From assembly GCA_040756765.1 (NCBI GenBank), contig JBFLYG010000002.1, positions 30,195-62,194 on the forward strand: DNA of 32,000 nucleotides, written 5' to 3'. Below the pieces are notes generated by a model. That model had not been told where the DNA came from, did not search any database, and saw only the letters and a program-made list of their open reading frames with translations. Source of the DNA: Pseudomonadota bacterium (GTDB lineage Bacteria > Pseudomonadota > Alphaproteobacteria > Rhizobiales > Xanthobacteraceae). Made by a program: the position numbers and the translations under genes. Below are positions 9,561 through 32,000 of the stretch, in pieces; position 1 is the stretch's first letter; every line of letters starts with the position of its first letter.

Positions 9561-9590
9561 CCTGCCATCACCGGCAGAAATCCAAAAGGA

Positions 9591-15077: not shown

Positions 15078-15707
15078 TTACCGACCGTAGACTCTTGTGG
15101 CGAGAGAAGTGCCGGCCTTGATTCGGGGCCATGGGTACGGAGCAGGAAAACTTCTGCCCTCCTCTAGCGCTTGAGCGACGTCGATACCTCGCTCTAGAAA
15201 CGCTATACGTTCCTTCTCTTCAGCACGAAGGTCCAAGAAATCAGCGACCTCGTCGGCTAGCTCAACACTTCTTCGCACAATATCTGTGCCAGTGAAGCGA
15301 AGAACAGGAATGCCGTACTTCTGTAGCGCCCGGTCGCGCTTGCGATCCTTGCTAGCTTGCTCCACCGTTCGTTCGTGGAATTGATGGCCATCGCACTCGA
15401 TCGCGACCATAGGGAAAGACCCAGTCAAACCTGGGATAAAGATAGCGAAATCTAACCTGCCGATGACTTCATATGCGAGCTGCGGGACAATCGCAAATGT
15501 GCCGCGTCGATTCTTTAGGTCGGGAGTTTGAAGTAGCGAAGTGTATTCCTGTTGAGAGTATATCCAGCACCCCCACTTCGCATAATAGGTAGACAATCGT
15601 TCGAAGAGTGCTAATCCAAATACTAGCTCAACGGGGCTATCCACCATCCCCCAAAGCTTACAAGCGACAGAATTTGACGCGTAATTCGTTGACACTGGTG
15701 CCTGCAC
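15078..15707 (-). CDS. DUF559/Vsr-like (PD-(D/E)xK fold) endonuclease-domain protein
   Basis: GTG start 15707 with GGAGG 5 nt upstream. RLDFAIFI...MVAIECDGHQFHERTVEQASKDRKRDRALQKYGIPVLRFTGTDI matches the D...ExDG..H...D..R...L...G..VLRF pattern of DUF559/Vsr-type nucleases. Confidence 0.6.
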   Translation of the reverse strand: MQAPVSTNYASNSVACKLWGMVDSPVELVFGLALFERLSTYYAKWGCWIYSQQEYTSLLQTPDLKNRRGTFAIVPQLAYEVIGRLDFAIFIPGLTGSFPMVAIECDGHQFHERTVEQASKDRKRDRALQKYGIPVLRFTGTDIVRRSVELADEVADFLDLRAEEKERIAFLERGIDVAQALEEGRSFPAPYPWPRIKAGTSLATRVYGR

Positions 15708-17564: not shown

Positions 17565-18566
17565 TTGTCCCCCCCCCCTCTTCCGGAGCCCCCTTTGCCC
17601 CCCACTATCCTCATCACCGGCACCAGCGGCTTTGTCGGCAGCGCGCTGGGGCGGGCGTTGCGTGCCAGGGGTTTTGAGGTTACGGGCGTCAGCCGGCGGC
17701 CGGCGCGGGCGGGGGCGGTGGATCGCCAGCTGCAGCACGATCTCGCCGCGCCGCTGCAGCCTGATCTGCCGCGCGCGGACATTGTCGTGCATGCCGCGGC
17801 GCTGGCCTCGCCCTGGGCGCGGCCGGCCGATTATCGCCGCAACATCGTCGATGCCACGCGCCACATGCTCGCCCATGCGCGGCGCACGGGGGCGGAGCAC
17901 TTTGTGCTGATCTCGACCACGGCGGTGCTCTATCGCGCCGGCGATCAGTTCGGCCTCACCGAGGACGATCCCTATCCCGCTGAGCCCATCAACGGCTATG
18001 CCGCAGCCAAGCGCGCGGCGGAGGAGGAGGTGCGCGCGGCGTGGCCCACCGCATCGATCCTGCGGCCGCGCGCGGTCTATGGCCCCGGCGACACCGTGCT
18101 GTTCCCCCGCATCCTCGATGCCGCGCGCAAGGGCGTGCTGCCGCGCATCGTGCGCGCCGATGGCGTCTCGCCGGTCGCCGATGTCGTCTACATCGACAAC
18201 CTCGTGCACGCCGTCGCCGTCGCGATCGCGCGGCGCCTCGCCGGCGTCGTCCATGTCACCGACGGCCAGCCGGTCGATACCGGCCATCTGCTCGCCGAGG
18301 TGCTCACGCGGCTCGGCATTCCCCAGCCGAAATTCCGCTGGTCCTATGCCAATGCGATGCGCCTCGCGGCGGTCGCCGAATGGGGCTCGCGCAACTTCTT
18401 CGGCTGGCGCGAGCCGCCGATCACGCGCTTCGGCGTCTCGGCGCTCACCCATTGCAAGACGTTTGCGCCACAGCGCATGCTGGCGCTGATCGGGCCGCCG
18501 CCGGTCACCACCGCAGAGGGCGTCGCCGCCTTCGTCGCCTGGCAGCAGGCCGGAGCGCCGCTGTGA
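17565..18566 (+). CDS. NAD(P)-dependent epimerase/dehydratase (extended SDR) family protein
   Basis: ILITGTSGFVGSAL Rossmann motif and YAAAK catalytic Y-x3-K. Start uncertain: TTG 17565 or TTG 17595. The Pro-rich N-terminus of the longer form is encoded by a C10 tract. Confidence 0.85.
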   Translation: MSPPPLPEPPLPPTILITGTSGFVGSALGRALRARGFEVTGVSRRPARAGAVDRQLQHDLAAPLQPDLPRADIVVHAAALASPWARPADYRRNIVDATRHMLAHARRTGAEHFVLISTTAVLYRAGDQFGLTEDDPYPAEPINGYAAAKRAAEEEVRAAWPTASILRPRAVYGPGDTVLFPRILDAARKGVLPRIVRADGVSPVADVVYIDNLVHAVAVAIARRLAGVVHVTDGQPVDTGHLLAEVLTRLGIPQPKFRWSYANAMRLAAVAEWGSRNFFGWREPPITRFGVSALTHCKTFAPQRMLALIGPPPVTTAEGVAAFVAWQQAGAPL

Positions 18567-19708
18567 CCCTCGCCTTCTGGCTCATCGCGGCTCTCTTCGT
18601 CGGCCTCGATCTCGTGCGCCGCACCCTGGCGCTGCGCGCCATCGCGGCGCAGGCGCAGGCGCAGCTTACCGCCGCGGCCGACGAGGCCGCCGTCACCGCG
18701 CTGCAGCCGATCCTCGGCGGCGATCCGGCGCTGCAGCAGTGCCTGGAAGCCAACCTGCGCAACGCGCCGCGGGCGCGCTTTCTCTGGCTGGTCGACGACG
18801 ATGATTTGGAGGGGCAGGCCGCCGCCCAGGCGGCGCTGGCCGCAACCCATCATCCCGCGACCACCCTCCTGCGCGCGCCGCGGCCGCCCGCCGGCCTCAA
18901 CCCCAAGAGCGTCAAGCTGGCGGCGGCGCTCGGCCATGTCGACACTGTCTTCGTCGCCGTGCTCGACGACGACACCATCCTGCCGCCGGGCACGCTCGGG
19001 GCCGTCGCGGCGCTGGCCGGCACGAGCGTGCTGGTCACCGGCCTGCCGCTCTATGCCGCGCGCGCCACGCTGGCGTCGCGCCTCGTCACCGGCTTCGTCA
19101 ACGCCAATTCGGCGCTCACCTATCTGCCGGCGGCGCGGCTCGGGCTGGCGCGCACCATCAACGGCATGTTCTCGCTGATGCGCACCGAGGATCTGCGCGC
19201 GCGCGGCGGCTTTGCGCGCATCGTCCACGAGGTCACCGACGATTATGCGCTGGCGCGCCTGTTCCTCGATGCCGGCGGCCGCATCGTGCAGGCGGTCGCC
19301 CCCGTCACGGTGATCACCACGGTGCGCGGGGGGCGCCACTGGCTCGCGCTGATGCGGCGCTGGATGGTGTTCGCGCGGCTCTATCTCCGCGAGAACCTGT
19401 CGCCGGGGCTGGCGCTCCTCGTCGTGCTGCCGGAATTTCTGGCGCTGCCGCTGCTGCTCGCGGGCCTCTTCGTGTCCGCGCCAGCGGCGGCGCTCGCCGT
19501 CGTCCTGCTGGTGGCCAAGGCGCTGGCAACCCGCGCGCTGGTGTGGCGGCTCACCGGGCAGGCGCCGCCGCTGTCCGATGTGCCCTTCGAGATCGCCGCC
19601 GCGCTGCTGCTGCCGCTGCACGCGGTGTCGTCTTCTCTCGCGCCCCACCGCATCCGCTGGCGCAACCGCGACCTCACCCTCGACGGCCGGCGGATCGTCG
19701 ATGGCTGA
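18563..19708 (+). CDS. GT2-family glycosyltransferase, ceramide-glucosyltransferase/HpnI-like, membrane-bound
   Basis: GTG start overlaps the SDR stop (GTGA). AVLDDDTILPPG (DxD) and LMRRWMVF (R-x-x-RW type motif), with N- and C-terminal TM segments. This is the in-frame tail of ORF 18041..19708. Confidence 0.75.
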   Translation: MTLAFWLIAALFVGLDLVRRTLALRAIAAQAQAQLTAAADEAAVTALQPILGGDPALQQCLEANLRNAPRARFLWLVDDDDLEGQAAAQAALAATHHPATTLLRAPRPPAGLNPKSVKLAAALGHVDTVFVAVLDDDTILPPGTLGAVAALAGTSVLVTGLPLYAARATLASRLVTGFVNANSALTYLPAARLGLARTINGMFSLMRTEDLRARGGFARIVHEVTDDYALARLFLDAGGRIVQAVAPVTVITTVRGGRHWLALMRRWMVFARLYLRENLSPGLALLVVLPEFLALPLLLAGLFVSAPAAALAVVLLVAKALATRALVWRLTGQAPPLSDVPFEIAAALLLPLHAVSSSLAPHRIRWRNRDLTLDGRRIVDG

Positions 19709-20339
19709 TCCGTATGCCCAGCGGCTGGCGACGCTCGATCCCACCGGCTTCCTGCTGCCACGCGCCGCGCAGCGGCTCTGCCTGCTCACCGGCCAGAGCG
19801 ATTTCGCCACCAGCGCGCTGCCGCCGGACAAGCACGCCTTTCTCGCCGCCGTCGCGCCCCCCGGCGCGGTGGTGACGCCGGTCGGCTTTCCCTGGCATGC
19901 CTCATTCGCCGCGCCGTCCGCCGGGCCGGTGCCGCTGGCGCGCGCCAGCGTGCGCAACGCCCGGCAGTGGATCTGGGCGCGCCACAGCGCCGTCTATCGC
20001 GCCGCGCTCGCGACCATCGTCGGCACGCTGCTCGCCCGCACCGAGCAGCGCCTGCTGCTGGTCACCGGCAGCTGCGGCGTCGACCTGCTCACCGCAGCGC
20101 TCGCCCGCCTGCCGGCGCACGGCCCCGAGATTGTTGCGGCGATCGTCGGCCCCGCCGGCCGCGCGCCGCCCAAAGGCCGCCTGACCCGTGCGCTGGTGGT
20201 GCAAGGCCGCCGCGACATCTGGAGCCGCGCCCTGTGGCGCGGCGCAGTCGACGAACGGCCGCCGTGCGGCCATCTCGACTACTATGGCGATGCCGCCACC
20301 CGCGCCGCGATCGCGGCGTTCTTTGCGGAGGTGGGCTAA
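19701..20339 (+). CDS. Hypothetical 212-aa protein, translationally coupled to the GT2 gene (possibly alpha/beta-hydrolase-like)
   Basis: ATG overlaps the GT2 stop (ATGGCTGA). LLLVTGSCGVDLL resembles a nucleophile elbow, but the assignment is weak. Confidence 0.55.
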   Translation: MADPYAQRLATLDPTGFLLPRAAQRLCLLTGQSDFATSALPPDKHAFLAAVAPPGAVVTPVGFPWHASFAAPSAGPVPLARASVRNARQWIWARHSAVYRAALATIVGTLLARTEQRLLLVTGSCGVDLLTAALARLPAHGPEIVAAIVGPAGRAPPKGRLTRALVVQGRRDIWSRALWRGAVDERPPCGHLDYYGDAATRAAIAAFFAEVG

Positions 20340-20435
20340 GGCGGGGTGAGGGTGAGGTTGAGCTGCCATCCGTCATCCGGGAACGGGTTCGGCGTGGTGG
20401 CTTTAGGTCCTCTATGGGACATAATAGGGCTCTAC

Positions 20436-20636
20436 ATTTTCGGCGTCATCACCGGGCCGGCGCGAAGCGCCGAGACAGTCCAAGCCGGATGTTTCCGGCT
20501 TGGACCATCAAAGAACGCAACTCGGCTGAGCCGAGTTGCTATGGATCCAGCTTCAAAGCTTACGTTTTGCTATGACCAAGCTGGATTGCCGGGTCTTCGC
20601 CCGGCAATGACGAAGTGGGTGTGGCGAGCTTCGAGA
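20436..20636 (+). repeat. REP-like repeat (type B, copy 2) carrying a nested 66-nt double-hairpin insertion (20477-20542)
   Basis: Direct comparison with the uninterrupted copy at 24181-24325. Confidence 0.8.
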
Positions 20637-20646
20637 TTCTCTCGCA

Positions 20647-21963
20647 ATGGCCTATGAGAGACGTGCCGAGAAAGAGGGGAGGCCCTTGCACGACGCCACA
20701 CCATCGAAACCCCTGCGCATCGCCTTTGTCGCGCCGCCCTTCGCCGGCCATCTCAATCCGCTGCTGGCGCTGGTCGAGGCGGCGCGCGATGCCGGGCATG
20801 ATGTGCGCGTGATCACCGGCGCGCGCAAGCGCGCCGCGGTCGAGGGGCGCGGACTTGCGGCGGTGACGCTCGATTGCCTCGCAGGGCCGATGCTCGAAGA
20901 CATCGCCGACACCGCGGCGCCGGTGCGCGGCCATCCCGGCCGGCTGCTCGCCCAGCTGCGCCGCTCGCTCGCCGTCGCTCTGCTGGCGCGCGACGAGCTG
21001 CTCGGCCTGTGGCGCGCGGCGCCGCCGGACCTCGTGGTCGCCGATTCCGTCGCGGTGTCCGCCGGGCTCGCCGCCACCGCGCTCGGCATTCCCTGGATCA
21101 CCACCATCGCGACGCCGTTCGCCATCGAAGGCCGCCGCGGCCCGCCGTCCTATCTCGGCGGCTGGGGCGCGGGCGACGGCGCGCTGCATCGCCTGCGCGA
21201 TGCCGCGGGCTGGGCGTTCGTCCGCACCATGAAGAGGGCGTTGGCGTTCGCGGCGCGCCGCGAGCTCGCGGCGCTTGGCGCGCAGCTCTACCGCCCCGAC
21301 GGCAGCGAGACCTGCTATTCGCCGACATCCATTCTCGGCTTCGGCCTGACGGAGCTGGAATTCGCACGCGACTGGCCGGCGGCGTTCCAGATGATCGGGC
21401 CGCTCACCCCAAACCCGGAGGCGGTCGCGCCGCCGGCCTTGCCGCCGGGGCGGCCGCGCGTGCTGGTCACGCTCGGCACCCATCTGCCCTGGGCCAAGGC
21501 GACGCTCGCCGACGATCTCGCCCGCCTTGCCGCGGCGCGGCCAGGCGTCACTTTTGTCGGCAGCCTCGGCACCGCGGAGGCGGGCCTTGCGGCAAGGCCG
21601 CTCGCTGACAACGCCGTGCTGCTGCCGTTCGTGCCCTATGACGCGCAGCTCGCGGCATTCGATGCGGTGATCCATCATGGCGGCGCCGGCATCACCTATG
21701 CCGCGATCGCCGCCGCCAAGCCGGCGCTGGTCGTGCCGCACGACTATGACCAGTTCGACTATGCGGCGCGCGTCGTCGCCAAGGGCGCGGGCCTGCGCGC
21801 AACGCGCCTTGTCAGCGACGCGACGTGTGCCGCGCTCGACCGCGTGCTGCAGCCGCAGCTGTTTCCGGCGCTGCCCGCGCTCGCCCGCGCTGCGGCGCGC
21901 TACCGGCCGCGCGCCGCGTTCCTCGCCGAGGTCGACAGGGTGGTCGGCGCGCACAGCCGCTGA
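20647..21963 (+). CDS. GT1-family UDP-glycosyltransferase (MGT/CrtX-like)
   Basis: N-terminal RIAFVAPPFAGHLNPLLAL and C-terminal HHGGAGITYAAIAAAKPALVVPHDYDQFDYA, the UDPGT signature. Confidence 0.8.
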   Translation: MAYERRAEKEGRPLHDATPSKPLRIAFVAPPFAGHLNPLLALVEAARDAGHDVRVITGARKRAAVEGRGLAAVTLDCLAGPMLEDIADTAAPVRGHPGRLLAQLRRSLAVALLARDELLGLWRAAPPDLVVADSVAVSAGLAATALGIPWITTIATPFAIEGRRGPPSYLGGWGAGDGALHRLRDAAGWAFVRTMKRALAFAARRELAALGAQLYRPDGSETCYSPTSILGFGLTELEFARDWPAAFQMIGPLTPNPEAVAPPALPPGRPRVLVTLGTHLPWAKATLADDLARLAAARPGVTFVGSLGTAEAGLAARPLADNAVLLPFVPYDAQLAAFDAVIHHGGAGITYAAIAAAKPALVVPHDYDQFDYAARVVAKGAGLRATRLVSDATCAALDRVLQPQLFPALPALARAAARYRPRAAFLAEVDRVVGAHSR

Positions 21964-23165
21964 GCCAGAACATCGTCGCCGAGCGGGATGCGCCGCTCAA
22001 AGCGGCGGAATTTGTCGTCGAGCGGCGGCAGCACCAGCGGCACTGTCGTGACATCACATTCGCAGCAGCTCTTCGCGGCCTCCACCGCGCGGCGGACGTT
22101 ATCGGCAGCAAGATGCTCCGGCAGGTGCAGCGTCATGCGCGCGGCGTCGGTCTGCACCAGGCGGAACGGCGCGCCGTCGAGCGCCGGCGCGATCTCCTGA
22201 TGGACGGCGCGCGGAAACAGCAGTCTGCCCGATGGCGCCAGGAGCACATCCGACAGGCGGCCCTCGATCGCCGCGATCGCCGGCAGCGCCGAGCCGCACG
22301 GGCACGGCCCGTCGCTTTCCATCGCGATGTCGTCGGTGCGATAGCGCAGCAGGCGCTGCGGGCCATGGCGCGTCATGTCGGTGACGATGGGGATGAAGCG
22401 GTCGGGCGCCGCGACGAACGACGCGCGCTCGAACTGCACGATGTCGACATTGAGATGCAGCCGGCCATGGGCGCAGCTCGCGCCGAAAAACCCTTCCGCC
22501 GCCTGGTAGACCTGGCGCACCGGCGCGCCGAGCCGGGCGCGCAGCACGGCTGCGTCCTCCGGCCACAGCGGCTCGCCGCCGGCGACGACGAGGCGGACCT
22601 GCCACGGTGCGCGCGCAAAGGTCGCGCTCTCGACAATGCGCCGCAGCGCGAATGGCGGGCCGACAATGATGTTGGGGCGGAACGCGGCGAGGCCTGCGGC
22701 GATCGCCTCTTCGCCGCGTCCGAGCGGGAAGAACGCGGTGCGCCTCTGCGTCTGGTGATAGAGGCGGCTGTCGTGGCGCAGCAGCACCGCGACGCGCCCT
22801 GCGCGCACGAAGTCGACGAGCTCGCCGGTCGTCAGCACGCGGGCGAGAAACGTGCCGAGCCAGCGCGCGCGGTCGCGCTGGGAGGCGATGAAGACGCCGG
22901 GCGTGCCGAGCGTGCCGGTGGACAGCCCGAAGCTGACGGCATGGCCCGTCGGCTCGCCCGCCGCCTCGCGCCGCGCCAGCTCGCGCGCCTGCGGCAGGTC
23001 AAGGCCGAGCGTGTTCCAGGCGGCGAAGTCTGTGCGATAGTCCGCGGGGCTGATGACGGGCGCCGACGGATCGGGCGGCGTGCCGCCGGCGGCCGAGAGC
23101 CAGCGCGGCGAGCGCGCCCGCAGCTTCGCACGCGCGAACGCCGTCAGGGCCTCAAGCGAGTTCAC
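21900..23165 (-). CDS. Adenylate-forming enzyme of the PaaK / coenzyme F390 synthetase-related type
   Basis: LSTGTLGTPGVF is the (S/T)(S/T)G(T/S)xGxP AMP-binding P-loop motif. About 421 aa from GTG 23165, overlapping the MBL stop by 14 nt. The longer N-terminus in ORF 21900..23513 is Arg/Ser/Pro junk overlapping the MBL gene. Confidence 0.7.
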   Translation of the reverse strand: MNSLEALTAFARAKLRARSPRWLSAAGGTPPDPSAPVISPADYRTDFAAWNTLGLDLPQARELARREAAGEPTGHAVSFGLSTGTLGTPGVFIASQRDRARWLGTFLARVLTTGELVDFVRAGRVAVLLRHDSRLYHQTQRRTAFFPLGRGEEAIAAGLAAFRPNIIVGPPFALRRIVESATFARAPWQVRLVVAGGEPLWPEDAAVLRARLGAPVRQVYQAAEGFFGASCAHGRLHLNVDIVQFERASFVAAPDRFIPIVTDMTRHGPQRLLRYRTDDIAMESDGPCPCGSALPAIAAIEGRLSDVLLAPSGRLLFPRAVHQEIAPALDGAPFRLVQTDAARMTLHLPEHLAADNVRRAVEAAKSCCECDVTTVPLVLPPLDDKFRRFERRIPLGDDVLAQRLCAPTTLSTSARNAARGR

Positions 23166-24000
23166 GCCGCGTGTCCTCGATCGCGGTGAAGCAGTGCGAC
23201 GGCACCACCAGCACGTCGGGGCGCTGCTGCGCGAAGCGCTGCAACTGCGCCAGGGTCTGCCGGTAGGCCGCGTAGTCGTCGATGAAGGCGCGCGCCGCTG
23301 CCAGCGGCTCGAGCCGCTCGCGGTAGCACAGCGACAGCCAGGCGGCGTCGGCGGCGAGGAACACCTCGCGCCCGCCATGGGTCTCGATCCGGATGCCGAA
23401 ATGCCCCGGCGCATGGCCGGGCAGCGGCACCGCGAGCACGCTGCGGTCGCCGAAGATGTCGGCGCCCTCGGCAAACGCCTCGTCGCGCGTGGTGACTGTG
23501 GCGTGCGGCGCATCCTCGAAGAAGTCGGCGCGCGCGCCGAGGTCGGCCGGAAACAGGTCGCGGATCAGCCCCGCCCGCAGCCGCGCGCCGAAGCCGGCCG
23601 GCGCCCGCGCGTCGAATGCTTGCCGCGACAGATAGACCTTGGTGGCCGGAAAGTCCGTCAGGCCGCCGGCGTGATCGGGATGGAGGTGCGACAGCACGAT
23701 GGCATGGACGTCGCCGGCTGCGATGCCCGCGGCGGCGAGCTGGTGCACGCAGGCCTCGCCCGGCGCGAGGCGATAGGGCAGCACGCGCCGGTACAGCCGC
23801 GCCACCGGATCGGTCGCCGTGCGCAGCGCCTCGCCATAGCCGGTGTCGAACAGCACCGCGCCGCGCGTCGGATGGCTGATGCGCCCGACCAGCGCCGGAA
23901 ACGTGGTGCGGCCGAGCTCCGGCCGCCCCGTCACCATGCAGGTCGGATGCTGGCAGCTGCCGCAGACGATGAGATCGAGCCCGACGCGCACGATGGTCAT
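23152..24000 (-). CDS. MBL-fold metallo-hydrolase
   Basis: IVLSHLHPDHAGG (HxHxDH) and a later GHAPGH. Start placed at ATG 24000 (MTIVRVGLDL). Confidence 0.85.
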   Translation of the reverse strand: MTIVRVGLDLIVCGSCQHPTCMVTGRPELGRTTFPALVGRISHPTRGAVLFDTGYGEALRTATDPVARLYRRVLPYRLAPGEACVHQLAAAGIAAGDVHAIVLSHLHPDHAGGLTDFPATKVYLSRQAFDARAPAGFGARLRAGLIRDLFPADLGARADFFEDAPHATVTTRDEAFAEGADIFGDRSVLAVPLPGHAPGHFGIRIETHGGREVFLAADAAWLSLCYRERLEPLAAARAFIDDYAAYRQTLAQLQRFAQQRPDVLVVPSHCFTAIEDTRRELA

Positions 24001-24069
24001 TCCCAATGAGTTCGAGGACAAGGATCTAACACAATGCCGCGCGACATTCCCGGCGTCATCCCCCGCAGG

Positions 24070-24325
24070 CGTCATCTCCCGTAGCCCGGGTGAGCGAAGC
24101 GATACCCGGGACCGCGGCCCCCACCTCCCCGCATATCGCTGCGCTCATGCGGGCTACGCGCTGGGACACGATGCGACTCCACATTTTCAGCGTCATCACC
24201 GGGCCGGCGCGAAGCGCCGAGACCCGGTGATCCAGCTTCAACGGATTCACGTTGCGCCGTGAGCAAGCTGGATTGCCGGATCAAGTCCGGCAATGACGCC
24301 GTGGGTGTGGCGAGCTTCGAAGCCG
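24070..24325. repeat. Cluster of REP-type hairpins (two type C units plus type B copy 3) between the KAS III and MBL genes
   Basis: gtagcccgggtgagcgaagcgatacccggg, then ccccgcatatcgctgcgctcatgcgggctac, then cagcgtcatcaccgggccggcgcgaagcgccgagacccggtgatccagcttcaa... Confidence 0.8.
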
Positions 24326-24364
24326 AGCCGGACAACCTTGGGCGCGGTGCCCGCTTCGCTCGCG

Positions 24365-25345
24365 CTAATACCTGAACACCATCGCCCCCATGCCGAAGCC
24401 GGCGGCGGTGCCGAGGAGGAGGCCGAGGTCGCCGCGGCGCAGGCGGCCGGTGGTGATGGCGTGGTGGAGCGTGGTCGGCAGCGACGCGCTCACCTGGTTG
24501 CCGTGATCGGCGAGGATGTCCACCATTGCCGCGCCCTTGGCGCCGAGCAGGCGCTTGAGAAAGCGCAGGCCGAGGCGGCTCGCCTGGTGCGGCATCACGC
24601 AGGCGATGTCGTCGAGCCGGACGCCGGCTTCGTCCAGCACCCGGGTGATAAAGTCCGGCAGCCGCTCCATGGCAAGGCGCGCCAGCGCCGCGCCGTTCAT
24701 GCGGAACAGATAATCTTGCTCGGACGGAGGCGGCCGCCGCGGATTCCAGCGCGAGCCGCCGGCGGGGATTTCGCAGAGATGCGCGCCGTCGGGATAGGTT
24801 TCGAGGCGGATGGCGAGGATCGCGGACGCACCGTCCGAGCGCCGCAGCACCGCCGCCGCGGCGCCGTCGCCGAACAGCGGCGCGGTTGCCGGGTCTTCGC
24901 GATCGAGGCCGAGGGTTGCGGTCTCCACCGCCACCACGGCGGCCTTCGTGGAGGTGCCGAGCGTGATCGCCGCCGCCGCGCCCTCGACCGCCTGCAGGAA
25001 GCCGAGGCACGAGGCATTGACGTCATAGGCGGTGATGCCGTCGAGGCCGAGGCGACGCGCGGTCAGCGCCGCGGTGGTCGGGATCGGCTGCTCGGCCATG
25101 ATCGACGTCACCACCAGGCGATCGAGCGCACCGGTGGCGTCGCCGGCGAGCGCCGCGCGCACCGCCTCGCTCGACATCAGCGACGCGCACTCGTCCTCCG
25201 TCGCCGCGTGGCGGCGGGCGACCCCGGTCAGCTTCTCGCTGCGCCCGCGCGGCCAGGCGTTGGCGGCATCGATGTCGGCGGAGGCGATCGTGGTGCGCGG
25301 CGTGTAGAGGCCGGTCGCGGCGATGGCTACGGGGAAGACCGTCAT
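24365..25345 (-). CDS. 3-oxoacyl-ACP synthase III (FabH-like KAS III) family condensing enzyme
   Basis: Start ATG 25345 (MTVFPVAIAATG). Catalytic triad contexts present: NASCLGF (Cys), MPHQAS (His), HGNQVSASLP (Asn). Confidence 0.85.
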   Translation of the reverse strand: MTVFPVAIAATGLYTPRTTIASADIDAANAWPRGRSEKLTGVARRHAATEDECASLMSSEAVRAALAGDATGALDRLVVTSIMAEQPIPTTAALTARRLGLDGITAYDVNASCLGFLQAVEGAAAAITLGTSTKAAVVAVETATLGLDREDPATAPLFGDGAAAAVLRRSDGASAILAIRLETYPDGAHLCEIPAGGSRWNPRRPPPSEQDYLFRMNGAALARLAMERLPDFITRVLDEAGVRLDDIACVMPHQASRLGLRFLKRLLGAKGAAMVDILADHGNQVSASLPTTLHHAITTGRLRRGDLGLLLGTAAGFGMGAMVFRY

Positions 25346-25480
25346 GCGTCGTGCGCGAGCCCCAACATGCAAAGAGGTCACTCTAGGGGGCGCGGCCGGG
25401 AGACACAACCGCCGCGGCCCTCGACGGCCGGGGACTTGCGCCCTATCTCAGGGGAGGATGCAGGCGATGGAGAGCGTGTC

Positions 25481-26098
25481 ATGACGGACCGGCGGAGCCA
25501 CTGGGAACATGTCTACGAGACCAAGGGCGAGCATGAAGTCAGCTGGTTTCAGGACAATCCCGCGCCGTCGCTGGAGCTGATCGCGCTGGCCGGCGCCGCG
25601 CCGGCATCCGCCATCATCGATATCGGCGGCGGCGCGTCGCGGCTGGTCGATGCCCTGCTGGCGCAGGGTTTTCGCGATCTGACCGTGCTCGACCTGTCGT
25701 CCGCCGCGCTCGCGACGGCGCAGGCGCGGCTTGGCCGCGCGGCGGACCGCGTCACCTGGATCGCCGCCGACGTCACCACCTGGCAGCCGCCGCAAGCCTA
25801 CGACATCTGGCACGACCGCGCCGCGCTGCACTTCCTCAACACGCCGCAGGAGCAGGCGGCGTATCGCGATCGCCTGCGGCAGGCGCTCAAGGTCGGCGGC
25901 CATGCCATCATCGGCACCTTCGCGCTCGACGGCCCGGAGAAATGCAGCGGCTTGCCGGTGACGCGGCACAGCGCCGACAGCCTCGGCGCGCTGCTCGGGG
26001 CGGACTTCACACTGGTGGACAGCCGCCGGCACGACCACGCGACGCCGTGGCAAGCGGTGCAGCACTTTCAGTTCAGCACGTTTGAGCGCACGCGCTAG
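25481..26098 (+). CDS. Class I SAM-dependent methyltransferase
   Basis: IIDIGGGASRLVDAL (motif I) and VLDLS. This is the in-frame tail of ORF 24293..26098, starting at ATG 25481. Confidence 0.8.
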   Translation: MTDRRSHWEHVYETKGEHEVSWFQDNPAPSLELIALAGAAPASAIIDIGGGASRLVDALLAQGFRDLTVLDLSSAALATAQARLGRAADRVTWIAADVTTWQPPQAYDIWHDRAALHFLNTPQEQAAYRDRLRQALKVGGHAIIGTFALDGPEKCSGLPVTRHSADSLGALLGADFTLVDSRRHDHATPWQAVQHFQFSTFERTR

Positions 26099-26117
26099 AC
26101 CGGCGGTCACACGCGCA

Positions 26118-27296
26118 TCACGTGTGCTGCCGCGGCACCAGCAGGACGCGCGGCCGCAGCAGCAGCGGCAGCGTGGCGATCAGCGCCGCCGCGGCGCCGA
26201 TCGCGAACGGCCCGGCATTGGTGGCACCGGCGACCAGCCCGCCGAGCGGGCCGCCGATGGCGAGGCCGAGGTCCCAGGCCGAGGTCACGGCGCCGAGCGC
26301 CGCGCTGCGCTCGCGTGGATCGGCGGCCTCGGTCACGAGGCTCGCCAGACAGGGATACAGCATCGACAGCCCGGCGCCGGTCAGCGCGGTAAAGCCGAGC
26401 GCGAGCCACGACGTCTGCGCGACGAACAGCCCGGCGAGGCCCGCGGCCTCGACCACGAAGGCGATCAGCAGCACGCGCCGCGCGCCGAAACGATCGACCG
26501 ATGAACTGCCGGCGAACCGCGTCACCATGAAGGTGACGCCGAACACCGTGAGCGCAAGATTCTCGCCGGCGAGCTGCAGCGCCGCGAAGCGCGGCACCAG
26601 GAACGCGGCGATGACGCCATAGCCGACACTGGCGAACACGTTCGACGCGCCGGGCAGCCACGCGGCGCGCGGCAAGAACGCGCGGCGGAGATCGCCGGTG
26701 GCGGCGGGCGGGGCTTCGGCGCGCGGCGTGCGCACCACCAGCACGAAGGCGAGCGCGGGACTGAAGCTCGCGGCGATCCACACATCGCGGTAGCTGCCGA
26801 ACGCGAGCAGCGCGGCGCCGATCACCGGCCCGCTGGCGAGCCCGGTCCACATCGACAGGCCGAAATGGCCGGCGATCGTGCCGCGGCGCGCCGGTTCGGC
26901 GTGCGCCAGCACCCAGCCGATCGCGGCGGTGAACAGCGCGCCTTCGCCGGCGCCGAGCAGCAGCCGCGCGACGATCAGCGCGGGCAGCGTCGAGGCAAGG
27001 AGATGCCCGAGGCCGCCGGCGCAGCCGAGCAGCGCGCCCGCGAGCACCACACGGCGGCCGCCGCGCTGGTCCGCGAGGCGGCCGGCGATCGGGCGGGCGA
27101 TCATGGTGGCGAGCGAGCCGATGGTCACCGCAAGTCCCGCGGCGACCGCATCCGCGCCGAGGCGGTCATGGGCATAGGCCGGCATCACCTGGATGGTCAT
27201 GCCGATCGCGGCATAGCCGAGGAAGCAGGCGGCCCATAGCGGCCAGTAGGGCGCGGCGGGAGCGGTGGTCGGGCGGACGGGATCGGCGGCGGGCAT
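26118..27296 (-). CDS. MFS transporter
   Basis: Start ATG 27296 (MPAADPVRP...). About 12 hydrophobic segments and ARPIAGRLADQRGGRR, the MFS loop 2-3 motif. Confidence 0.85.
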   Translation of the reverse strand: MPAADPVRPTTAPAAPYWPLWAACFLGYAAIGMTIQVMPAYAHDRLGADAVAAGLAVTIGSLATMIARPIAGRLADQRGGRRVVLAGALLGCAGGLGHLLASTLPALIVARLLLGAGEGALFTAAIGWVLAHAEPARRGTIAGHFGLSMWTGLASGPVIGAALLAFGSYRDVWIAASFSPALAFVLVVRTPRAEAPPAATGDLRRAFLPRAAWLPGASNVFASVGYGVIAAFLVPRFAALQLAGENLALTVFGVTFMVTRFAGSSSVDRFGARRVLLIAFVVEAAGLAGLFVAQTSWLALGFTALTGAGLSMLYPCLASLVTEAADPRERSAALGAVTSAWDLGLAIGGPLGGLVAGATNAGPFAIGAAAALIATLPLLLRPRVLLVPRQHT

Positions 27297-27364
27297 CACG
27301 TCATCGGCAGGCGGGTTCGGCGATGACAGTACGCGGCGCGGCTGATATGACTCAATCGCGTTAT

Positions 27365-27383
27365 TCTCATCAAGATTATGAGA
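27365..27383. promoter_or_regulatory. Inverted repeat TCTCAT-N7-ATGAGA in the MFS/LysR divergent intergenic region (candidate LysR-type box)
   Basis: Perfect 6-bp arms, located 8 nt upstream of the LysR ATG. Confidence 0.4.
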
Positions 27384-27390
27384 CTTGGGC

Positions 27391-28314
27391 ATGAACACGC
27401 GGGATCTCGAGGCCTTCCTCGCGGTGGTGGAGACCGGCTCGATCGTCGCCGCCGCCGCGCGGCTGCATCTGACGCAGTCGGGCGTCAGCCGCCGCATCCA
27501 GAGTCTCGAGGAGCAGCTCGGCGTCGCGCTGCTCGATCGCCTGTCGAAGCCGCTCAAGCCCACTGCCGCGGGCCACGACACGTATGCGCACGGGCGCCGC
27601 GTGCTGCGGGTGCTGGACGACCTCAAGTCCGAGCTGTCGCGCGACGGCGCGGTCACCGGCGAATTCCGCCTCGGCATCACGCCGTATCTGTCGGAGATCG
27701 CGCTGACGGCGCCGCTCGATCAGCTGCGCGGCAGCTTTCCCGACCTCACGCTGTGTGTCACCACCGGCTGGCCGGAGCAGCTTGTCGAGCGCCTGCGCCG
27801 CGGCGAGATCGATGCCGCGGCGTTCTGCCTGCCGGAGGCGGTCGATCCGCCCGACGATCTCGTCACGGACGTGCTCGACCTGCAGCCGCTGGTCGTCGTG
27901 GTGCCGCAGGCCTGCGCGCTGCGATCGTCCACGACGCTGCAGGCGCTGGCGGCCTATCCCTGGATCATCAACCCGGACGGCTGCGGTTTCCGCAGCGCGC
28001 TGCGGCGGCGCCTCGCACAGGACGACCTGCCGCTGCGCGTCGGCGTCGAGGCGCTGAGCTCGGACCTGCGCCTGTCGCTGGTGGCGCGCGGCGCCGGCAT
28101 CACGCTGGCGACCCGCGCCGCCATCGAGGCAAGCCCGCTGCGCAGCCAACTGCGGATCGTCACGGTGCGCGACTTCGCGCCGAAGGTCCGCGCCTTCCTG
28201 GTGCATCGCCCGCCCGCCGGCCGGCTGGCGCCGCCGATCGCGGCGCTTGCCACCGCACTGAAGGCCGCACTGGCCGCGCCTGAGCCGGCCAGGCGGCGAG
28301 TGGCCGCGCGGTAG
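27391..28314 (+). CDS. LysR-family transcriptional regulator
   Basis: MNTRDLEAFLAVVETGSIVAAAARLHLTQSGVSRRIQSLEEQLGVALLDR is the canonical LysR wHTH, followed by a substrate-binding domain. Confidence 0.9.
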   Translation: MNTRDLEAFLAVVETGSIVAAAARLHLTQSGVSRRIQSLEEQLGVALLDRLSKPLKPTAAGHDTYAHGRRVLRVLDDLKSELSRDGAVTGEFRLGITPYLSEIALTAPLDQLRGSFPDLTLCVTTGWPEQLVERLRRGEIDAAAFCLPEAVDPPDDLVTDVLDLQPLVVVVPQACALRSSTTLQALAAYPWIINPDGCGFRSALRRRLAQDDLPLRVGVEALSSDLRLSLVARGAGITLATRAAIEASPLRSQLRIVTVRDFAPKVRAFLVHRPPAGRLAPPIAALATALKAALAAPEPARRRVAAR

Positions 28315-28341: not shown

Positions 28342-28779
28342 TCAGCGCGGAGCGCCGGCGCGCAGTTCGTCGTAGTCGCCCTCGGGGGATGCGCCGCGGC
28401 CGACGGCGACGAAGCCGTGCGCCTCATAGAAGCGCCGCGCGCGCGCATTGGCGACGAGGCATTTCAGCCGGTAGGGACGGTCGGGCCATCCCGGCAGCGC
28501 GCGCAGCAGCGCGGTGCCGACGCCGCGGCGCTGCCACGCCTCGCGCACATAGAGCATGTGGATGAAATCATCAGCGGCCCACACGGAAATGAAGCCGGCG
28601 ATCGTGCCGTCCGCCGCCTGCGCGAGCCAGATCGCTTCGCCTTGCGCGTCCGCCGCGAAATCGTCGAGGCGGAATGTTGCGGGATCGCACCAGCCGAACG
28701 CCTGGCGCCGGCCGTCGCGATAGATCTCTGCAAGTGCGGCGCTGTCGCGCGCGTGCGCAGGGCGGATGATCGGGGGCAT
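28342..28779 (-). CDS. GNAT-family N-acetyltransferase
   Basis: IRPAHARDSAALAEIY...VREAWQRRGVGTALL...NARARRFYEAHGF, the Q/RxxGxG/A acetyl-CoA motif. Confidence 0.8.
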   Translation of the reverse strand: MPPIIRPAHARDSAALAEIYRDGRRQAFGWCDPATFRLDDFAADAQGEAIWLAQAADGTIAGFISVWAADDFIHMLYVREAWQRRGVGTALLRALPGWPDRPYRLKCLVANARARRFYEAHGFVAVGRGASPEGDYDELRAGAPR

Positions 28780-28904: not shown

Positions 28905-29355
28905 GGTCTCCTCATCCTGAGAGTCTGACTCAAAAAGCGACTATGGACCTAAATGTTTGTCGTCGCCGGGCTTGTCCCGGCGACCCCGGCAAGGAGGGCA
29001 CTGCGCCCCTAAGCGGGGTGGCCGGGACAAGCCCGGCCACGACAGAAAAATACGAGCCGCGCCGCTCCTTCACAAACGCCCAACGCCTTTTCCAGTCAGG
29101 CTCTGAGGAGCAGGCGAAGCCTGCGTCTCGAAGGATGAGGCCCGGATTGGTCAGCCGATGCGCCTCGGCCTCATGGTTCGAGACGCGCGGCGAAGCCGCG
29201 CTCCTCTCCATGAGGGAGAAGCCGGAAGCTGGCAGTTTCGAGTGTTGAGGGGGCGCTCATTCACAGCGTCATCATGGGGCCGTCGCGCAGCGTCTCTGGT
29301 CTCATGCGGCGTTGGCCACACCCAACGCGTCGTTGCCGGGCTTGACCCGGCAACC
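28905..29355. repeat. Block of REP-type repeats: inverted type A copy 4 (28957-29046, no module), SFETR-type hairpins, degenerate type B
   Basis: 28957-29046 is the reverse complement of the type A core. 29088-29215 has ccttttccagtcaggctctgagg and the cgtctcgaaggatgaggc / gcctcatggttcgagacg pairing. Confidence 0.75.
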
Positions 29356-29625
29356 CAGCTGCGCGCGCGGCGGTCGCAATTCTTCAGGGGATGGCGAGCA
29401 CCGGCAGGGCCACGAATCGCAACCCCCATGCCAAGATCTTAATGAGATCGCTAAGGTATTCACGACGCTATCCGAAGTAAAAAGGACAAAAAGTACCTTG
29501 TTGAGGACACCAAGTACCTTAATGAGGCGCGGAATAGCCTCGGAATTACAGTGCCTTAAATAATCGAGGGCCCAGTCTTCTGCGTGTCGCGTGTCGTAGC
29601 GACGAGAACAGAAGGATCTCAAGCC

Positions 29626-31323
29626 ATGCCCTCCGAAATCACCCTGTCCGCGGCGACGCGCCAGAACCTGCTGTCGTTGCAGGACACCGCATCGCTGCTC
29701 GCGACCACCCAGTCGCGCCTGTCGACCCAGAAGAAGGTCAACTCGGCGCTCGACAATCCCGTCAACTATTTCGCCGCGCAGAGCATGACGGCGCGCTCGT
29801 CCGACCTGATGTCGCTGCTCGACGGCATCTCCAACGGCATCCAGACCGTGCAGGCGGCCAACCAGGGCATCACCCGCATCCAGGGCCTGGTCGATTCCGC
29901 CAAGAGCGCCGCGCAGCAGGCGCTCGCCGTGCAGAACACCGCCGCGGGCGCGACCGCGACCGGCGCGGTGGTGGCCGCGGCCAACGGCAAGTCGCTGCTC
30001 GGCAGCGGCACCGGCGCCGCCGCCGACGGCACCCATGATTACAGCGGCACCAATGCCGCGTCGTCGTTCACCCTCACCGACAATTTCGGCAACACCGCCT
30101 CGATCACGCTCGACCGCGGCCATCTCGGCACCGTGCGCGACATCACCAAGGTGACGTCGACCGAGATCCTGACCCAGATCAACCAGCAGCTCAGCCAGGC
30201 CGGCGGCTTCGCCACGGCGTCGCTGACCAATGACGGCCGCCTGACCTTTACTTCGACCGTCACCGGCGTCGACGCCAAGCTGACGGTCGGCGGCGGCGGC
30301 GCCGCCAACACCGTCGATGTCGGCTTCGGCGTCGGCACCGTCACCGCGGTGTCCGCCTCGGGCATCGACGCCACCGACGGCTCGGCCAAGGCCACCGTCA
30401 CCGGCGCCGCGATCACTGCGCTCGGGGTCGCCAGCAACTTCGACCTCACCAGCGGCGATGCCTCGATCACCCTGCAGCTCGGCAACGGCCTGTCCAAGAC
30501 CATCAACCTCAACAAGACGGCGGATGCCTCGCTTGGTTCGGCGACGCTCAAGGCCCAGGACATCGCCAACGCCATCAACAAGCAGCTCAACGCCGACACC
30601 GGCATCTCCGGCAAGGTGATCGCGACCTACGACAACACCGCCGGCACCATCGCGCTGCGCACCACGGCGGCGGGCGGCGACCAGAAGATCACCGTGACGT
30701 CGGCGTCCGCGAGCACCAAGGACATCGGCTTTGGCACCGGCGGCGATGTCACCAAGGCGCGGATCGGCGCCGGCGCCGGCGCCACCTCGGCCAACGGCAC
30801 CAACCAGCGCGCCGTGCTCGCCCAGCAGTTCAACGATCTCCTGACGCAGATTTCGATGGCGGCGCAGGACGCGCGCTTCCAGGGCGTCAACCTGCTCTAC
30901 CGCTCGGGCAGCGACCCGCGCGAGAACACGCTGCACCTGACGTTCAACGAGAAGGACACCAGCTTTCTCGACATCAAGGGCGTGAAGTTCGATGCCGCCG
31001 GTCTCGGCATCACCCAGATCACCGGCAACTTCGCCACCAATGACGAGATCAAGACCTCGCTGAGCCAGCTCACCAACGCGGCGTCGACGTTGCGCACCCA
31101 GGCCTCGACCTTCGGCTCCAACATGACGGTGGTACAGAACCGCCAGGCGCTGACCAAGAGCATCGTCAACATCCTCGATGTCGGCGCCAGCAACCTGACC
31201 ATCGCCGACCTCAACGAGGAAACCGCCAACCAGAAGGCGCTGGAGCTGCGCAACTCGCTGGCGATCTCGGCGCTGTCGCTCGCGAGCCAGGCGCAGCAGG
31301 GCATTCTGCAGCTGCTCCGCTAA
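29626..31323 (+). CDS. Flagellin, 565 aa, with conserved N/C helical domains and a duplicated central domain
   Basis: Start ATG 29626 after AAGGA. N-terminus RLSTQKKVNSALDNPVNYF and C-terminus NRQALTKSIVNILDVGASNLTIADLNEETANQKALELRNSLAISALSLASQAQQGILQLLR are flagellin N and C regions. Confidence 0.85.
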   Translation: MPSEITLSAATRQNLLSLQDTASLLATTQSRLSTQKKVNSALDNPVNYFAAQSMTARSSDLMSLLDGISNGIQTVQAANQGITRIQGLVDSAKSAAQQALAVQNTAAGATATGAVVAAANGKSLLGSGTGAAADGTHDYSGTNAASSFTLTDNFGNTASITLDRGHLGTVRDITKVTSTEILTQINQQLSQAGGFATASLTNDGRLTFTSTVTGVDAKLTVGGGGAANTVDVGFGVGTVTAVSASGIDATDGSAKATVTGAAITALGVASNFDLTSGDASITLQLGNGLSKTINLNKTADASLGSATLKAQDIANAINKQLNADTGISGKVIATYDNTAGTIALRTTAAGGDQKITVTSASASTKDIGFGTGGDVTKARIGAGAGATSANGTNQRAVLAQQFNDLLTQISMAAQDARFQGVNLLYRSGSDPRENTLHLTFNEKDTSFLDIKGVKFDAAGLGITQITGNFATNDEIKTSLSQLTNAASTLRTQASTFGSNMTVVQNRQALTKSIVNILDVGASNLTIADLNEETANQKALELRNSLAISALSLASQAQQGILQLLR

Positions 31324-31538
31324 CCGTGCGCGGAGGAGGGTGAGCGCCGGCGCCATGCGTTCCAGGATGGAGCGTGTGGCGCCGATCCGCCCGGCCCGTC
31401 TCTCCGCCTCAAATCCATGGCGCCCGCGTTCTCGTTCCGCGTCCCGATGGCGCGCCTCCCATCGCCGTTCGTCGTGCCGTCCCGCGCAAAGCGCCGGACC
31501 GCCGCGACCGGCCGTCACTCTCTTTCCATCGGGGCTTT

Positions 31539-32000
31539 GATGAGCATCTCCATCGCACTGCAGAACGCGTTCAGCGGCATGAAGGCGCAGTCCTACGCGA
31601 TCGGCAACATCTCCGGCAACATCGCCAACGCGCAGACGCCGGGCTACAAGTCCATCGACACCAATTTCGCCGACCTGATCACCGCGCAGTCGTCCAAGCA
31701 GGCGATGGCGGGCAGCGTGATCGCCGAGGCGCGCTTCACCACCGCGCAGCAAGGCGCGCTGCGCGCCACCGGCATCTCCACCAACATGGCGATCAACGGC
31801 CCGGGCTTCCTGGTCGTGCAGCAGAAGACCGGCGAGGCGAAGTTCTCCGGCGTGTCGCAGTACACCCGCCGCGGCGACTTCACGCTCAACAAGGACGGCT
31901 ACCTGGTCAACGGCGCCGACGGCTACCTGTTCGGCAGCAATCTCGATCCCGCGACCGGCAGCGTCACCTCCTCGGGCCCGATCAAGATCGCCAATGTCAG
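31539..32000 (+). CDS. flgE: Flagellar hook protein FlgE, N-terminal 154 codons (continues past the window)
   Basis: My translation: MSISIALQNAFSGMKAQSYAIGNISGNIANAQTPGYKS...NMAINGPGFLVVQ...YTRRGDFTLNKDGYLVNGADGYLFG. This combines the rod/hook N-terminal motif with FlgE-type downstream motifs. Confidence 0.75.

Follow-up and report, generated by a model that had tools for sequence, protein, structure and literature searches.

A mobile seven-gene cassette in a Xanthobacteraceae genome: a candidate glycolipid pathway built on a widespread four-gene core

The enzyme superfamilies that activate, condense, reduce and glycosylate carboxylic acids are all known in bacteria, and their combination follows a familiar logic. 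This report concerns an orphan lipid or glycolipid gene cluster of this kind, a cassette of seven genes in a 32,000-nucleotide stretch of DNA (the window) from a member of the Xanthobacteraceae (Alphaproteobacteria; assembly GCA_040756765.1, contig JBFLYG010000002.1, positions 30,195 to 62,194 of the forward strand). The cassette encodes an adenylate-forming enzyme (adenylase), a ketoacyl-acyl carrier protein synthase III (KAS III), a metallo-beta-lactamase (MBL)-fold hydrolase, a short-chain dehydrogenase/reductase (SDR), two glycosyltransferases (GTs) of families 21 and 1 (GT21 and GT1) and a small alpha/beta-hydrolase of 212 amino acids. All functional statements are based on sequence and gene context, from which we infer the sequence of reactions, their substrates, the part played by each hydrolase and the kinds of sugar added.

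The described systems closest to the cassette share different parts of it. Operons whose adenylase belongs to NCBIfam family TIGR02304 ('F390 synthetase-related protein') contain the same four families of adenylase, KAS III, MBL and SDR with invariant catalytic residues and tight linkage, and constitute a true homologous system. They differ from the window in that the window SDR gene lies in a second, convergent operon and the decoration genes are those for GT21, the alpha/beta-hydrolase and GT1. No functional study of the TIGR02304 operons was found in the full-text literature. The best structurally characterized relatives of the window KAS III are MxnB and CorB, stand-alone KAS III-type enzymes of myxopyronin and corallopyronin synthesis that carry out a head-to-head fusion leading to an alpha-pyrone. 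In common with the window enzyme they have a Cys-His-Asn triad and a hydrophobic residue at one further site (V94 in MxnB and CorB), but act on carrier-bound beta-ketoacyl chains in trans-acyltransferase polyketide synthase (PKS)/nonribosomal peptide synthetase (NRPS) lines, whereas the window encodes no PKS or carrier protein. The OleABCD, lipstatin (LstABCD) and nocardiolactone (NltABCD) systems share a thiolase-fold condensing enzyme, an SDR of the 3beta-hydroxysteroid dehydrogenase (3beta-HSD) type and an adenylate-forming enzyme, with or without a hydrolase. In contrast to OleABCD, the window KAS III is not of the OleA family, the hydrolase is MBL-fold rather than alpha/beta, and the scores fall far below the equivalog cut-offs. 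PqsA, PqsD and PqsE share with the window the trio of ANL ligase, KAS III and MBL protein and the logic of activation, condensation and release, but no window protein is closest to its Pqs counterpart, PqsBC and PqsH are lacking, and the neighbouring LysR gene is not conserved.

Precedents for the decoration genes come from membrane-lipid and surfactant pathways. Glucosylceramide synthase and HpnI share with the window GT21 the fold family, the DxD and R-x-x-R-W motifs and membrane anchoring. In the hopanoid pathway the deacetylase HpnK follows HpnI, and here too a hydrolase gene follows the GT gene; no hopanoid or sphingolipid (Spt, CerS) genes are nearby, however, and the window hydrolase has an alpha/beta fold rather than being YdjC-type. 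Rhamnolipid synthesis employs RhlA (alpha/beta-hydrolase fold), RhlB (GT1-like) and RhlC (GT2) to make a beta-hydroxy-acyl lipid bearing two sugars. The window encodes enzymes of these three fold classes, and the best Protein Data Bank (PDB) match of its GT1 is a rhamnosyltransferase, but the 212-amino-acid hydrolase has no detected sequence relation to RhlA (no Pfam match) and a dedicated four-enzyme module would supply the aglycone. Unlike in the rhamnolipid system, the GT2-type enzyme of the window is a GT21 and probably acts first.

An open reading frame (ORF) scan combined with direct reading of the sequence, with families assigned by Pfam and NCBIfam profile searches, gave the following features for the cassette and its immediate neighbours:

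17565-18566, plus strand: SDR, extended 3beta-HSD/OleD-like type, first gene of the plus operon
18563-19708, plus strand: GT21, membrane-anchored glycosyltransferase resembling ceramide glucosyltransferase and HpnI
19701-20339, plus strand: 212-amino-acid alpha/beta-hydrolase, a predicted esterase, thioesterase or acyltransferase
20415-20634: repeat element, copy 1, between the hydrolase and GT1 genes
20647-21963, plus strand: GT1, MGT/YjiC/EryCIII-like glycosyltransferase, last gene of the plus operon
21900-23165, minus strand: adenylase, PaaK-type, divergent relative of TIGR02304
23152-24000, minus strand: MBL-fold hydrolase resembling N-acylhomoserine lactone (AHL) lactonases; a longer ORF extends to 24075
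24162-24320: repeat element, copy 2, between the MBL and KAS III genes
24365-25345, minus strand: KAS III with Cys-His-Asn triad, first gene of the minus operon; a longer ORF extends to 25408
25481-26098, plus strand: class I S-adenosylmethionine-dependent methyltransferase (Pfam Methyltransf_25/12/11), divergent from KAS III
26118-27296, minus strand: major facilitator superfamily (MFS) transporter (Pfam/NCBIfam)
27385-28314, plus strand: LysR regulator (Pfam/NCBIfam)

An initial annotation, made from the window alone, had listed ten ORFs with three start/stop overlaps and a set of catalytic motifs. All of these were present, and each family call was borne out by the profile searches. The sequence GTGA at 18563-18566 forms the GT21 start overlapping the SDR stop, ATGGCTGA at 19701-19708 forms the overlap of GT21 with the 212-amino-acid ORF, and the MBL and adenylase genes overlap by 14 nt (23152-23165). 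An independent gene call on an identical public contig places the SDR start at an alternative TTG at 17595, giving 323 amino acids, while the 282-, 421- and 438-amino-acid products are also called on identical public contigs. The catalytic residues, which had been read as intact, are unchanged or nearly so across 15 to 93 homologues per family and are all present in the window. The statement that the region has no acyl carrier protein (ACP), PKS or NRPS gene also held.

The conserved unit corresponds to positions 17565-25408. Comparative genomics was carried out over about 120 loci; the census for the layout of the window-type seven-gene cassette (type A) covered 44 loci and relied on tblastn with self-chosen thresholds, and loci from metagenomes do not count as independent samples taxonomically. 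The seven genes have an identical order in every type-A locus examined, with KAS III, MBL and adenylase convergent with SDR, GT21, the 212-amino-acid hydrolase and GT1; all seven lie on a single strand in locus L052. Since this fixed order recurs at every type-A locus, the arrangement is far from chance. It is kept at identities of 37-87%, with relatives of the adenylase followed from 79% down to 36%, and Bradyrhizobium spp. have cassette proteins 75-87% identical to those of the window. Other hosts are Nitrospirillum, a Rhodospirillales metagenome-assembled genome, Hydrogenophaga, Janthinobacterium, Hymenobacter (Bacteroidota) and Phycicoccus (Actinomycetota). The functional link between the two convergent operons proposed in the initial annotation is upheld, as they occur together in 14 of the 14 type-A loci with full flanks, and the gene-neighbourhood comparison that it had called for found the seven genes co-conserved well beyond close relatives. 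The genes for GT21, the hydrolase and GT1 always co-occur (14/14 of the same loci).

The flanks of the cassette differ at each locus and are often mobile elements, such as an integrase in L005 and an IS630-type transposase in L008. In Nitrospirillum viridazoti (L039, CP022113.1, locus positions 6543-14900) the cassette is carried on an 825-kb replicon beside relaxase and NikA genes, and an ISL3 transposase insertion probably inactivates its GT21 gene. The window-type cassette was absent from PLSDB, a plasmid search giving only distant core relatives of less than 60% identity. Judged from these comparisons, the cassette is a real unit that is spreading horizontally. Three neighbours that had been counted as members do not belong to it. 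An orthologue of the methyltransferase (80% identity, equal position) lies beside the cassette only in Bradyrhizobium sp. 2TAF24 (L011) and in no other locus of the census, so that this gene is at most a lineage-specific tailoring gene outside the conserved cassette. The MFS and LysR genes never adjoin the cassette in type-A loci and were rejected as cluster members because they are never co-conserved; all three are ordinary neighbours.

Within the cassette a smaller unit can be recognized. Scans of genome and metagenome collections with an adenylase alignment gave 107 further loci. Core genes were counted, again by tblastn with self-chosen thresholds, in 60 non-redundant loci where the adenylase is flanked by 4 kb or more in each direction. 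KAS III, SDR and MBL genes lie within 6 kb of the adenylase in 57 of these 60, and in the window all three are within 5 kb. Most core loci are single-strand operons in the order KAS III, SDR, MBL, adenylase, without a glycosyltransferase. In GT-less loci the SDR gene sits in the KAS operon, and where a GT is present it stands directly beside the GT gene (15 of 15 type-A and 19 of 19 Streptococcus-type loci). The SDR thus belongs to an ancient core with KAS III, MBL and adenylase and is not a sugar enzyme paired with a GT2. The accessory sets around the core are exchanged between loci: GT21 with the 212-amino-acid protein and GT1 (14 loci); one YjiC-like GT1 (10 loci, in Streptococcus parasanguinis and relatives); PAP2_3 with FA_hydroxylase-family and FA_desaturase-family membrane enzymes (10 loci, including E. 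coli and P. syringae); and an ATP-grasp ligase with an unknown 386-amino-acid protein and a Rieske oxygenase (14-30 loci). This swapping of modules points to an anchor lipid whose head and tail chemistry can be exchanged.

Two of these arrangements can be described further. In loci L090-L122 (e.g., L111 at 6790-12031), S. parasanguinis and relatives have the order GT1, SDR, MBL, adenylase, KAS III beside ylxM-ffh. Beside loci that appeared to be core-only, three extra families recur in L045-L119 (e.g., L053 11145-12350, L078 3743-4903, L057 7104-8108): a PRK06849-like ATP-grasp protein (340 bits) in 30 loci, the protein of about 386 amino acids in 24 and the Rieske oxygenase in 14. The second of these had no Pfam or NCBIfam match, and the set is possibly an amino-acid head-group module. 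The PDB sequence search with the P. syringae desaturase gave no match.

The core family is large, and hundreds of lineages share the four enzymes. An exhaustive HMMER scan yielded 263 representatives (50% identity clusters) at E <= 1e-30, and there are more than 3600 family matches in Xenorhabdus, Providencia, Pectobacterium, Serratia, the P. syringae group and others, with Snodgrassella and S. parasanguinis also among the carriers of the core operon. The 90%-identity cluster of the streptococcal adenylase has 6278 member sequences and is therefore abundant in human-associated metagenomes. Among 5426 complete E. coli genomes, 674 (~12%) carry the operon, where seven genes (L123, NZ_CP141085.1 85456-92337) lie between narGHJI and purU, for example in the uropathogenic E. 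coli (UPEC) strain 26-1; they encode KAS III, an NAD-dependent oxidoreductase, an MBL hydrolase, an F390 synthetase-related protein, a PAP2 phosphatase, a sterol-desaturase-family protein and an acyl-CoA desaturase. The core genes bear only generic family-level names in the annotated records inspected, as do all seven genes of the E. coli operon. No paper on a KAS III-SDR-MBL-adenylase operon was found in the full-text literature, which leaves most subscription journals uncovered, so that this absence is not proof; only general papers on OleA, PpyS, NocG and CorB surfaced. The earlier statement that no characterised product could be named for the gene combination agrees with this search, with the same reservation about subscription journals.

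The window adenylase scores 169.8 bits for TIGR02304, under the cut-off of 251.9, while adenylases of GT-less operons with the same four genes are genuine members (572.9 bits in Xenorhabdus, 431.8 in Verrucomicrobiales). By this comparison the window enzyme falls in a divergent sister clade of TIGR02304. Its close relatives are few, with 22 word-sharing matches and about 5 of the 263 family representatives at 44% identity or more (HMMER). The AlphaFold2 model (mean predicted local distance difference test score, pLDDT, 88.1) is most similar in fold to PaaK1, BT_0428, AjiA1 and NatL2, and the sequence matches are to PaaK-like ligases only, with none to OleC. The enzyme has the PaaK-type ANL fold, the adenylation motifs and a CxC zinc motif: S82/G84/T85 (P-loop-like), Y220/E224/G225, R274/D279, C288/C290 and G302/R303 do not vary among 75 homologues, 74 of which also have K385.

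The KAS III matches Pfam ACP_syn_III and ACP_syn_III_C and scores 268.6 bits for PRK07204, below the cut-off of 402. Sequence matches in the PDB are led by CorB (157.5 bits) and MxnB (149.6), followed by FabH enzymes (137.7 at most), PqsC (69), OleA (~58) and PqsD (52), the last ranking below some 55 other KAS III structures. The KAS of a genuine core operon gives 208 bits for MxnB, 198 for CorB and 171 for the best FabH. Among 87 homologues C113 and H253 are invariant and N283 is found in 86. In enzymes that condense plain acyl chains the chain is deprotonated by a Glu base, E117 in OleA of X. campestris and E105 in PpyS, where MxnB and CorB have Val (PMC4578411). The corresponding position 88 is Ile in the window and Ile, Leu or Met in 85 of the 87 homologues. 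The window KAS III is thus not an OleA-family thiolase with a Glu base, which makes a malonyl or beta-ketoacyl thioester the probable nucleophile; joining of two plain acyl chains in the manner of OleA was rejected on the same ground.

The MBL protein matches Pfam Lactamase_B (59.4 bits) and, over its full length, the AttM-type lactonase family (81.7 bits, below the cut-off of 390). Its best PDB matches are N-acylhomoserine lactonases and 4-pyridoxolactonase, and PqsE is not among its 24 PDB matches. H105, H107, D109, H110, H196, D218 and H269 are invariant in 93 of 93 homologues; in 91 of them, as in the window (Trp221), Trp replaces the equivalent of the substrate-stabilising Tyr194 of AiiA.

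The initial annotation had treated the SDR as a sugar-side partner of the GT2 and compared the pair with HpnA and HpnI. That assignment is revised by the membership of the SDR in the GT-less core and by the profile scores. Pfam matches are Epimerase (99.9 bits) and 3Beta_HSD (56.8 bits), the best NCBIfam match is OleD (NF042422; 131.8 bits, cut-off 580), and HpnA gives 70.5 bits (cut-off 367.65). OleD was the best curated family in all three SDRs tested, with 160.8 and 225.9 bits for those of core operons, and the PDB relatives include NSDHL. G19, G25, S117, Y145 and K149 are invariant in 87 homologues. The enzyme is accordingly best described as a predicted lipid-acting 3beta-HSD-type reductase, not a nucleotide-sugar epimerase; the 3beta-HSD, OleD and NSDHL matches together with the GT-less operons rule out the epimerase and HpnA assignments. 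Because its gene always adjoins a GT gene where one is present, and is translationally coupled to that of GT21 in the window, the SDR probably makes the hydroxyl that becomes glycosylated.

GT21 is assigned to family 21 by its match to Pfam Glyco_transf_21 (PF13506; 105.8 bits, threshold 21.7), and its PDB sequence matches are to ceramide glucosyltransferase only. HpnI scores 67.9 bits against a cut-off of 310; neither the HpnI nor the HpnA cut-off was reached, and no shc or hpn genes were found in the window or related loci. Hydrophobic segments are N-terminal and, in several parts, C-terminal (residues 1-19 and 286-317), and D135-D137, R266 and W267, of the DxD and R-x-x-R-W motifs, are invariant in 15 of 15 homologues. 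GT1 matches EryCIII-like_C (51.1 bits, threshold 31.7) and UDPGT; as it gives only 62.8 bits for TIGR01426 (cut-off 260), it belongs to the superfamily and not to the curated subfamily. After the rhamnosyltransferase, its PDB matches include SnogD, CalG1/3, YjiC and sterol glucosyltransferase, and HHGGAG (H343-G348) and D366/D368/Q369 are invariant in 33 of 33 homologues. The 212-amino-acid protein, previously labelled unknown, has no Pfam or NCBIfam match. Its AlphaFold2 model (mean pLDDT 92.9) is matched by Foldseek (probability 1.0, TM-scores ~0.5) to carboxylesterase 4fhz, the SulM (NRPS) thioesterase, dienelactone hydrolase, LipA and cutinases, and Ser124, Asp172 and His191, a triad in canonical order, are invariant in 22 and in 17 homologues. 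Given the confident model, the fold matches and the invariant triad, the protein is a divergent, minimal alpha/beta-hydrolase. A protein recorded by NCBI from a metagenome-assembled Pseudomonadota genome is 100% identical to it, and the window appears to derive from such a genome. The hydrolase was found only inside the cassette, always between GT21 and GT1; a spurious ORF in high-GC DNA was ruled out by its conservation, triad and fold.

The most likely reading, with a probability of roughly 0.45, is that the region is a horizontally mobile, modular glycolipid cassette whose product is a beta-hydroxy lipid anchor diglycosylated at the membrane. In the first module, the four-enzyme lipid core, the PaaK-type adenylase would activate a carboxylic acid, KAS III would form a beta-keto intermediate by Claisen condensation, the MBL protein would release or open this intermediate by thioester or lactone hydrolysis, and the SDR would reduce the beta-keto group to the hydroxyl used by the adjacent GT. 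In the second module GT21 would attach a first sugar at the membrane, in the way that glucosylceramide synthase and HpnI glycosylate lipid alcohols, the small Ser-Asp-His hydrolase would trim or acylate the intermediate, and GT1 would add the second sugar, giving a diglycosylated beta-hydroxy lipid in the cell envelope.

Several observations weigh against this proposal. The SDR, KAS III and adenylase all score below the cut-offs of their curated families, and the KAS III exceeds FabH by only about 20 bits and might be a decarboxylative enzyme of the usual FabH type or even an acyltransferase. The PaaK-type enzymes of solved structure all use small aryl or short acids, so the starter may not be a fatty acid. 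The MBL protein may act in release either as a thioesterase or as a lactonase. No ACP is encoded that would carry the thioester, and no product or phenotype is known for any member of the cassette family. The core is also not absolutely indivisible. The MBL gene is missing in a few loci (L032, L034), and in L040 (a JGI 3300001815 contig, 7904-13699), which is flanked by YoeB/Phd and TacA/GNAT toxin-antitoxin pairs, SDR, GT21, hydrolase and GT1 genes converge with MBL and KAS III genes, making six genes without an adenylase. Finally, the repeat insertions in the window (described below) could affect operon expression.

The initial annotation had drawn an analogy with PqsA, PqsD and PqsE and predicted a small lipid or signal molecule. 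In a Pqs-like signal pathway an aryl-CoA would be extended with malonyl-CoA, the MBL protein would hydrolyse the thioester, and the product would be reduced, glycosylated, methylated, exported by the MFS transporter and controlled by the LysR regulator. The part of the analogy that stands is the sharing of three superfamilies; PaaK-type enzymes of known structure do activate aryl acids, a KAS without the Glu base fits a malonyl or beta-keto nucleophile, and a LysR and MFS pair adjoins the cassette. The nearest relatives are different, however, namely CorB (157 bits, against 52 for PqsD and 69 for PqsC), AHL lactonases in place of PqsE, which is absent from the MBL matches, and PaaK-type ligases; the LysR, MFS and methyltransferase genes are not co-conserved, and GT21 is membrane-embedded. 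Since the core is paired elsewhere with PAP2, lipid hydroxylase and desaturase proteins, a membrane lipid is the likelier product than a diffusible signal, and a Pqs-like route is considered unlikely. We hold a similarly low opinion of an Ole-type pathway assembled by non-orthologous replacement, in which the SDR would be OleD, the adenylase an OleC-like beta-lactone synthetase and the MBL protein or small alpha/beta-hydrolase OleB-like, and a beta-lactone, olefin or 2-alkyl-3-hydroxy acid would then be glycosylated. This idea draws on OleD as the best curated family for three of three SDRs (131.8, 160.8 and 225.9 bits), the correspondence of four enzyme roles to oleABCD, the lactonase-like MBL protein and the proximity of the KAS III to the head-to-head enzymes MxnB and CorB, and NocG/NocH offer a precedent for a head-to-head ketosynthase with an acyl-AMP ligase (PMC9486936). 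It is difficult to reconcile with Ile, Leu or Met in place of the essential Glu base (PMC4578411) and a score of only ~58 bits for OleA structures, with an adenylase that is PaaK-type rather than OleC-type, a core hydrolase of MBL fold, an OleD score far under the 580-bit cut-off and a variant that has no adenylase (L040); moreover, an olefin or lactone would offer no hydroxyl to two GTs.

Two further explanations are much less probable. If the MBL protein were a true lactonase, the other enzymes might process the ring-opened acid in a catabolic or quorum-quenching system. The protein does align over its full length with AttM/AiiA-type lactonases and keeps the seven metal ligands, yet the Trp at the Tyr194 position of AiiA in 91 of 93 homologues, the occurrence of the system in Streptococcus as well, and the presence of a condensing enzyme with a Cys-His-Asn triad and of two or three transferases for sugars or head groups, which have no place in such a scheme, make it improbable. 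That the operons are unrelated and merely back to back, one for HpnA/HpnI-like envelope glycosylation and the other for fatty-acid or lactone metabolism, would fit their convergence, which precludes co-transcription, and the weak HpnA and HpnI matches. This view is scarcely tenable given that the halves stay together in every type-A locus of Alpha- and Betaproteobacteria, Bacteroidota and Actinomycetota despite differing flanks, that the SDR gene moves to the KAS operon where GTs are absent and all genes share one strand in L052, and that a convergent 3' overlap of 55-119 nt is conserved.

If the diglycosylated-lipid proposal is correct, the window holds one version of the lipid-biosynthetic operons that form a large family spread across phyla and lack an assigned product. 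With the lipid identified, the envelope lipids or glycolipids of bacteria would gain a new class, thousands of genes named 'F390 synthetase-related', 'MBL fold hydrolase' or 'NAD-dependent epimerase' would receive a function, and it would be explained why the anchor core joins head-group enzymes of such different kinds. Uropathogenic-type E. coli, pathogens of plants and insects and a dominant oral Streptococcus are among the carriers, and the relatives in E. coli, P. syringae and Xenorhabdus are tractable models for the core pathway. Being rare and mobile, the GT21 variant may give its hosts a surface property specific to their niche, whether surfactant, protective or antagonistic. The head-group enzymes of the core (GT21, PAP2_3, lipid hydroxylase, desaturase) mirror those of eukaryotic ceramide. 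A bolder and at present doubtful idea is that the core provides a pyridoxal phosphate-independent route to a hydroxylated, ceramide-like membrane-lipid anchor with lineage-specific, interchangeable head groups, namely sugars (GT21), phospho-groups (PAP2) and amino acids (ATP-grasp). Were it true, it would be a bacterial parallel to sphingolipid head-group diversification across hundreds of bacterial lineages.

The two operons of the window have only two sizeable intergenic gaps, and each holds a copy of the same repeat element in the same orientation (~160-220 nt). The element was found through the direct-repeat families D3, D5 and D7 and pairwise alignment of the copies, which are 82-94% identical in ungapped blocks and ~73% identical across the whole gapped alignment. 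Each copy holds a GC-rich hairpin (TTGCCGG...CCGGCAA), and copy 1 has an additional hairpin with a 10-bp stem at 20517-20539; the element resembles repetitive extragenic palindromes or miniature inverted-repeat transposable elements (REP/MITE-like). At other loci no gap separates the hydrolase gene from that of GT1, the two abutting or sharing up to 8 nt (L003, L005, L007, L040), and the gap between the MBL and KAS III genes is 0-4 nt (L005, L007, L008). Direct reading showed that the 3' ends of the adenylase and GT1 genes share 64 nt (21900-21963), so both C-termini are encoded on opposite strands of shared DNA. The overlap is 55-119 nt in L003, L005, L007, L008 and L009. Conservation of such a convergent overlap is unusual, and the expression of one operon could be coupled through it to that of the other.

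Upstream of the SDR gene, a block of low GC content (52-62%, compared with 64-74% around it) extends from a tRNA gene to position 17560 and contains the following features:

5076-5165: tRNA-Ser(CGA), followed by the low-GC block
5341-5853, plus strand, and 11038-11754, minus strand: phage-integrase-family genes
7195-7725, plus strand: DnaD/helix-turn-helix protein
12016-12942, minus strand: DUF2971 protein
13192-13650, plus strand: DUF6641 protein
15078-15707, minus strand: MTES_1575/DUF559 restriction-endonuclease-like protein

This integrase-bearing block looks like a genomic island abutting the SDR gene. A search at its far edge for an attR copy of the tRNA 3' end found none, and Rfam and tRNA scans of the window detected nothing but tRNA-Ser. 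On the other side of the cassette, downstream of the LysR gene, are a GNAT acetyltransferase gene (28342-28779, minus strand) and two overlapping candidate ORFs on opposite strands, one at 29302-31752 (minus strand, 816 amino acids, no Pfam match) and the other at 29584-31323 (plus strand, 579 amino acids, with a weak Flagellin_N match of 26.1 bits). In Bradyrhizobium sp. U87765 (L003), too, the cassette has flagellar genes at its flanks.

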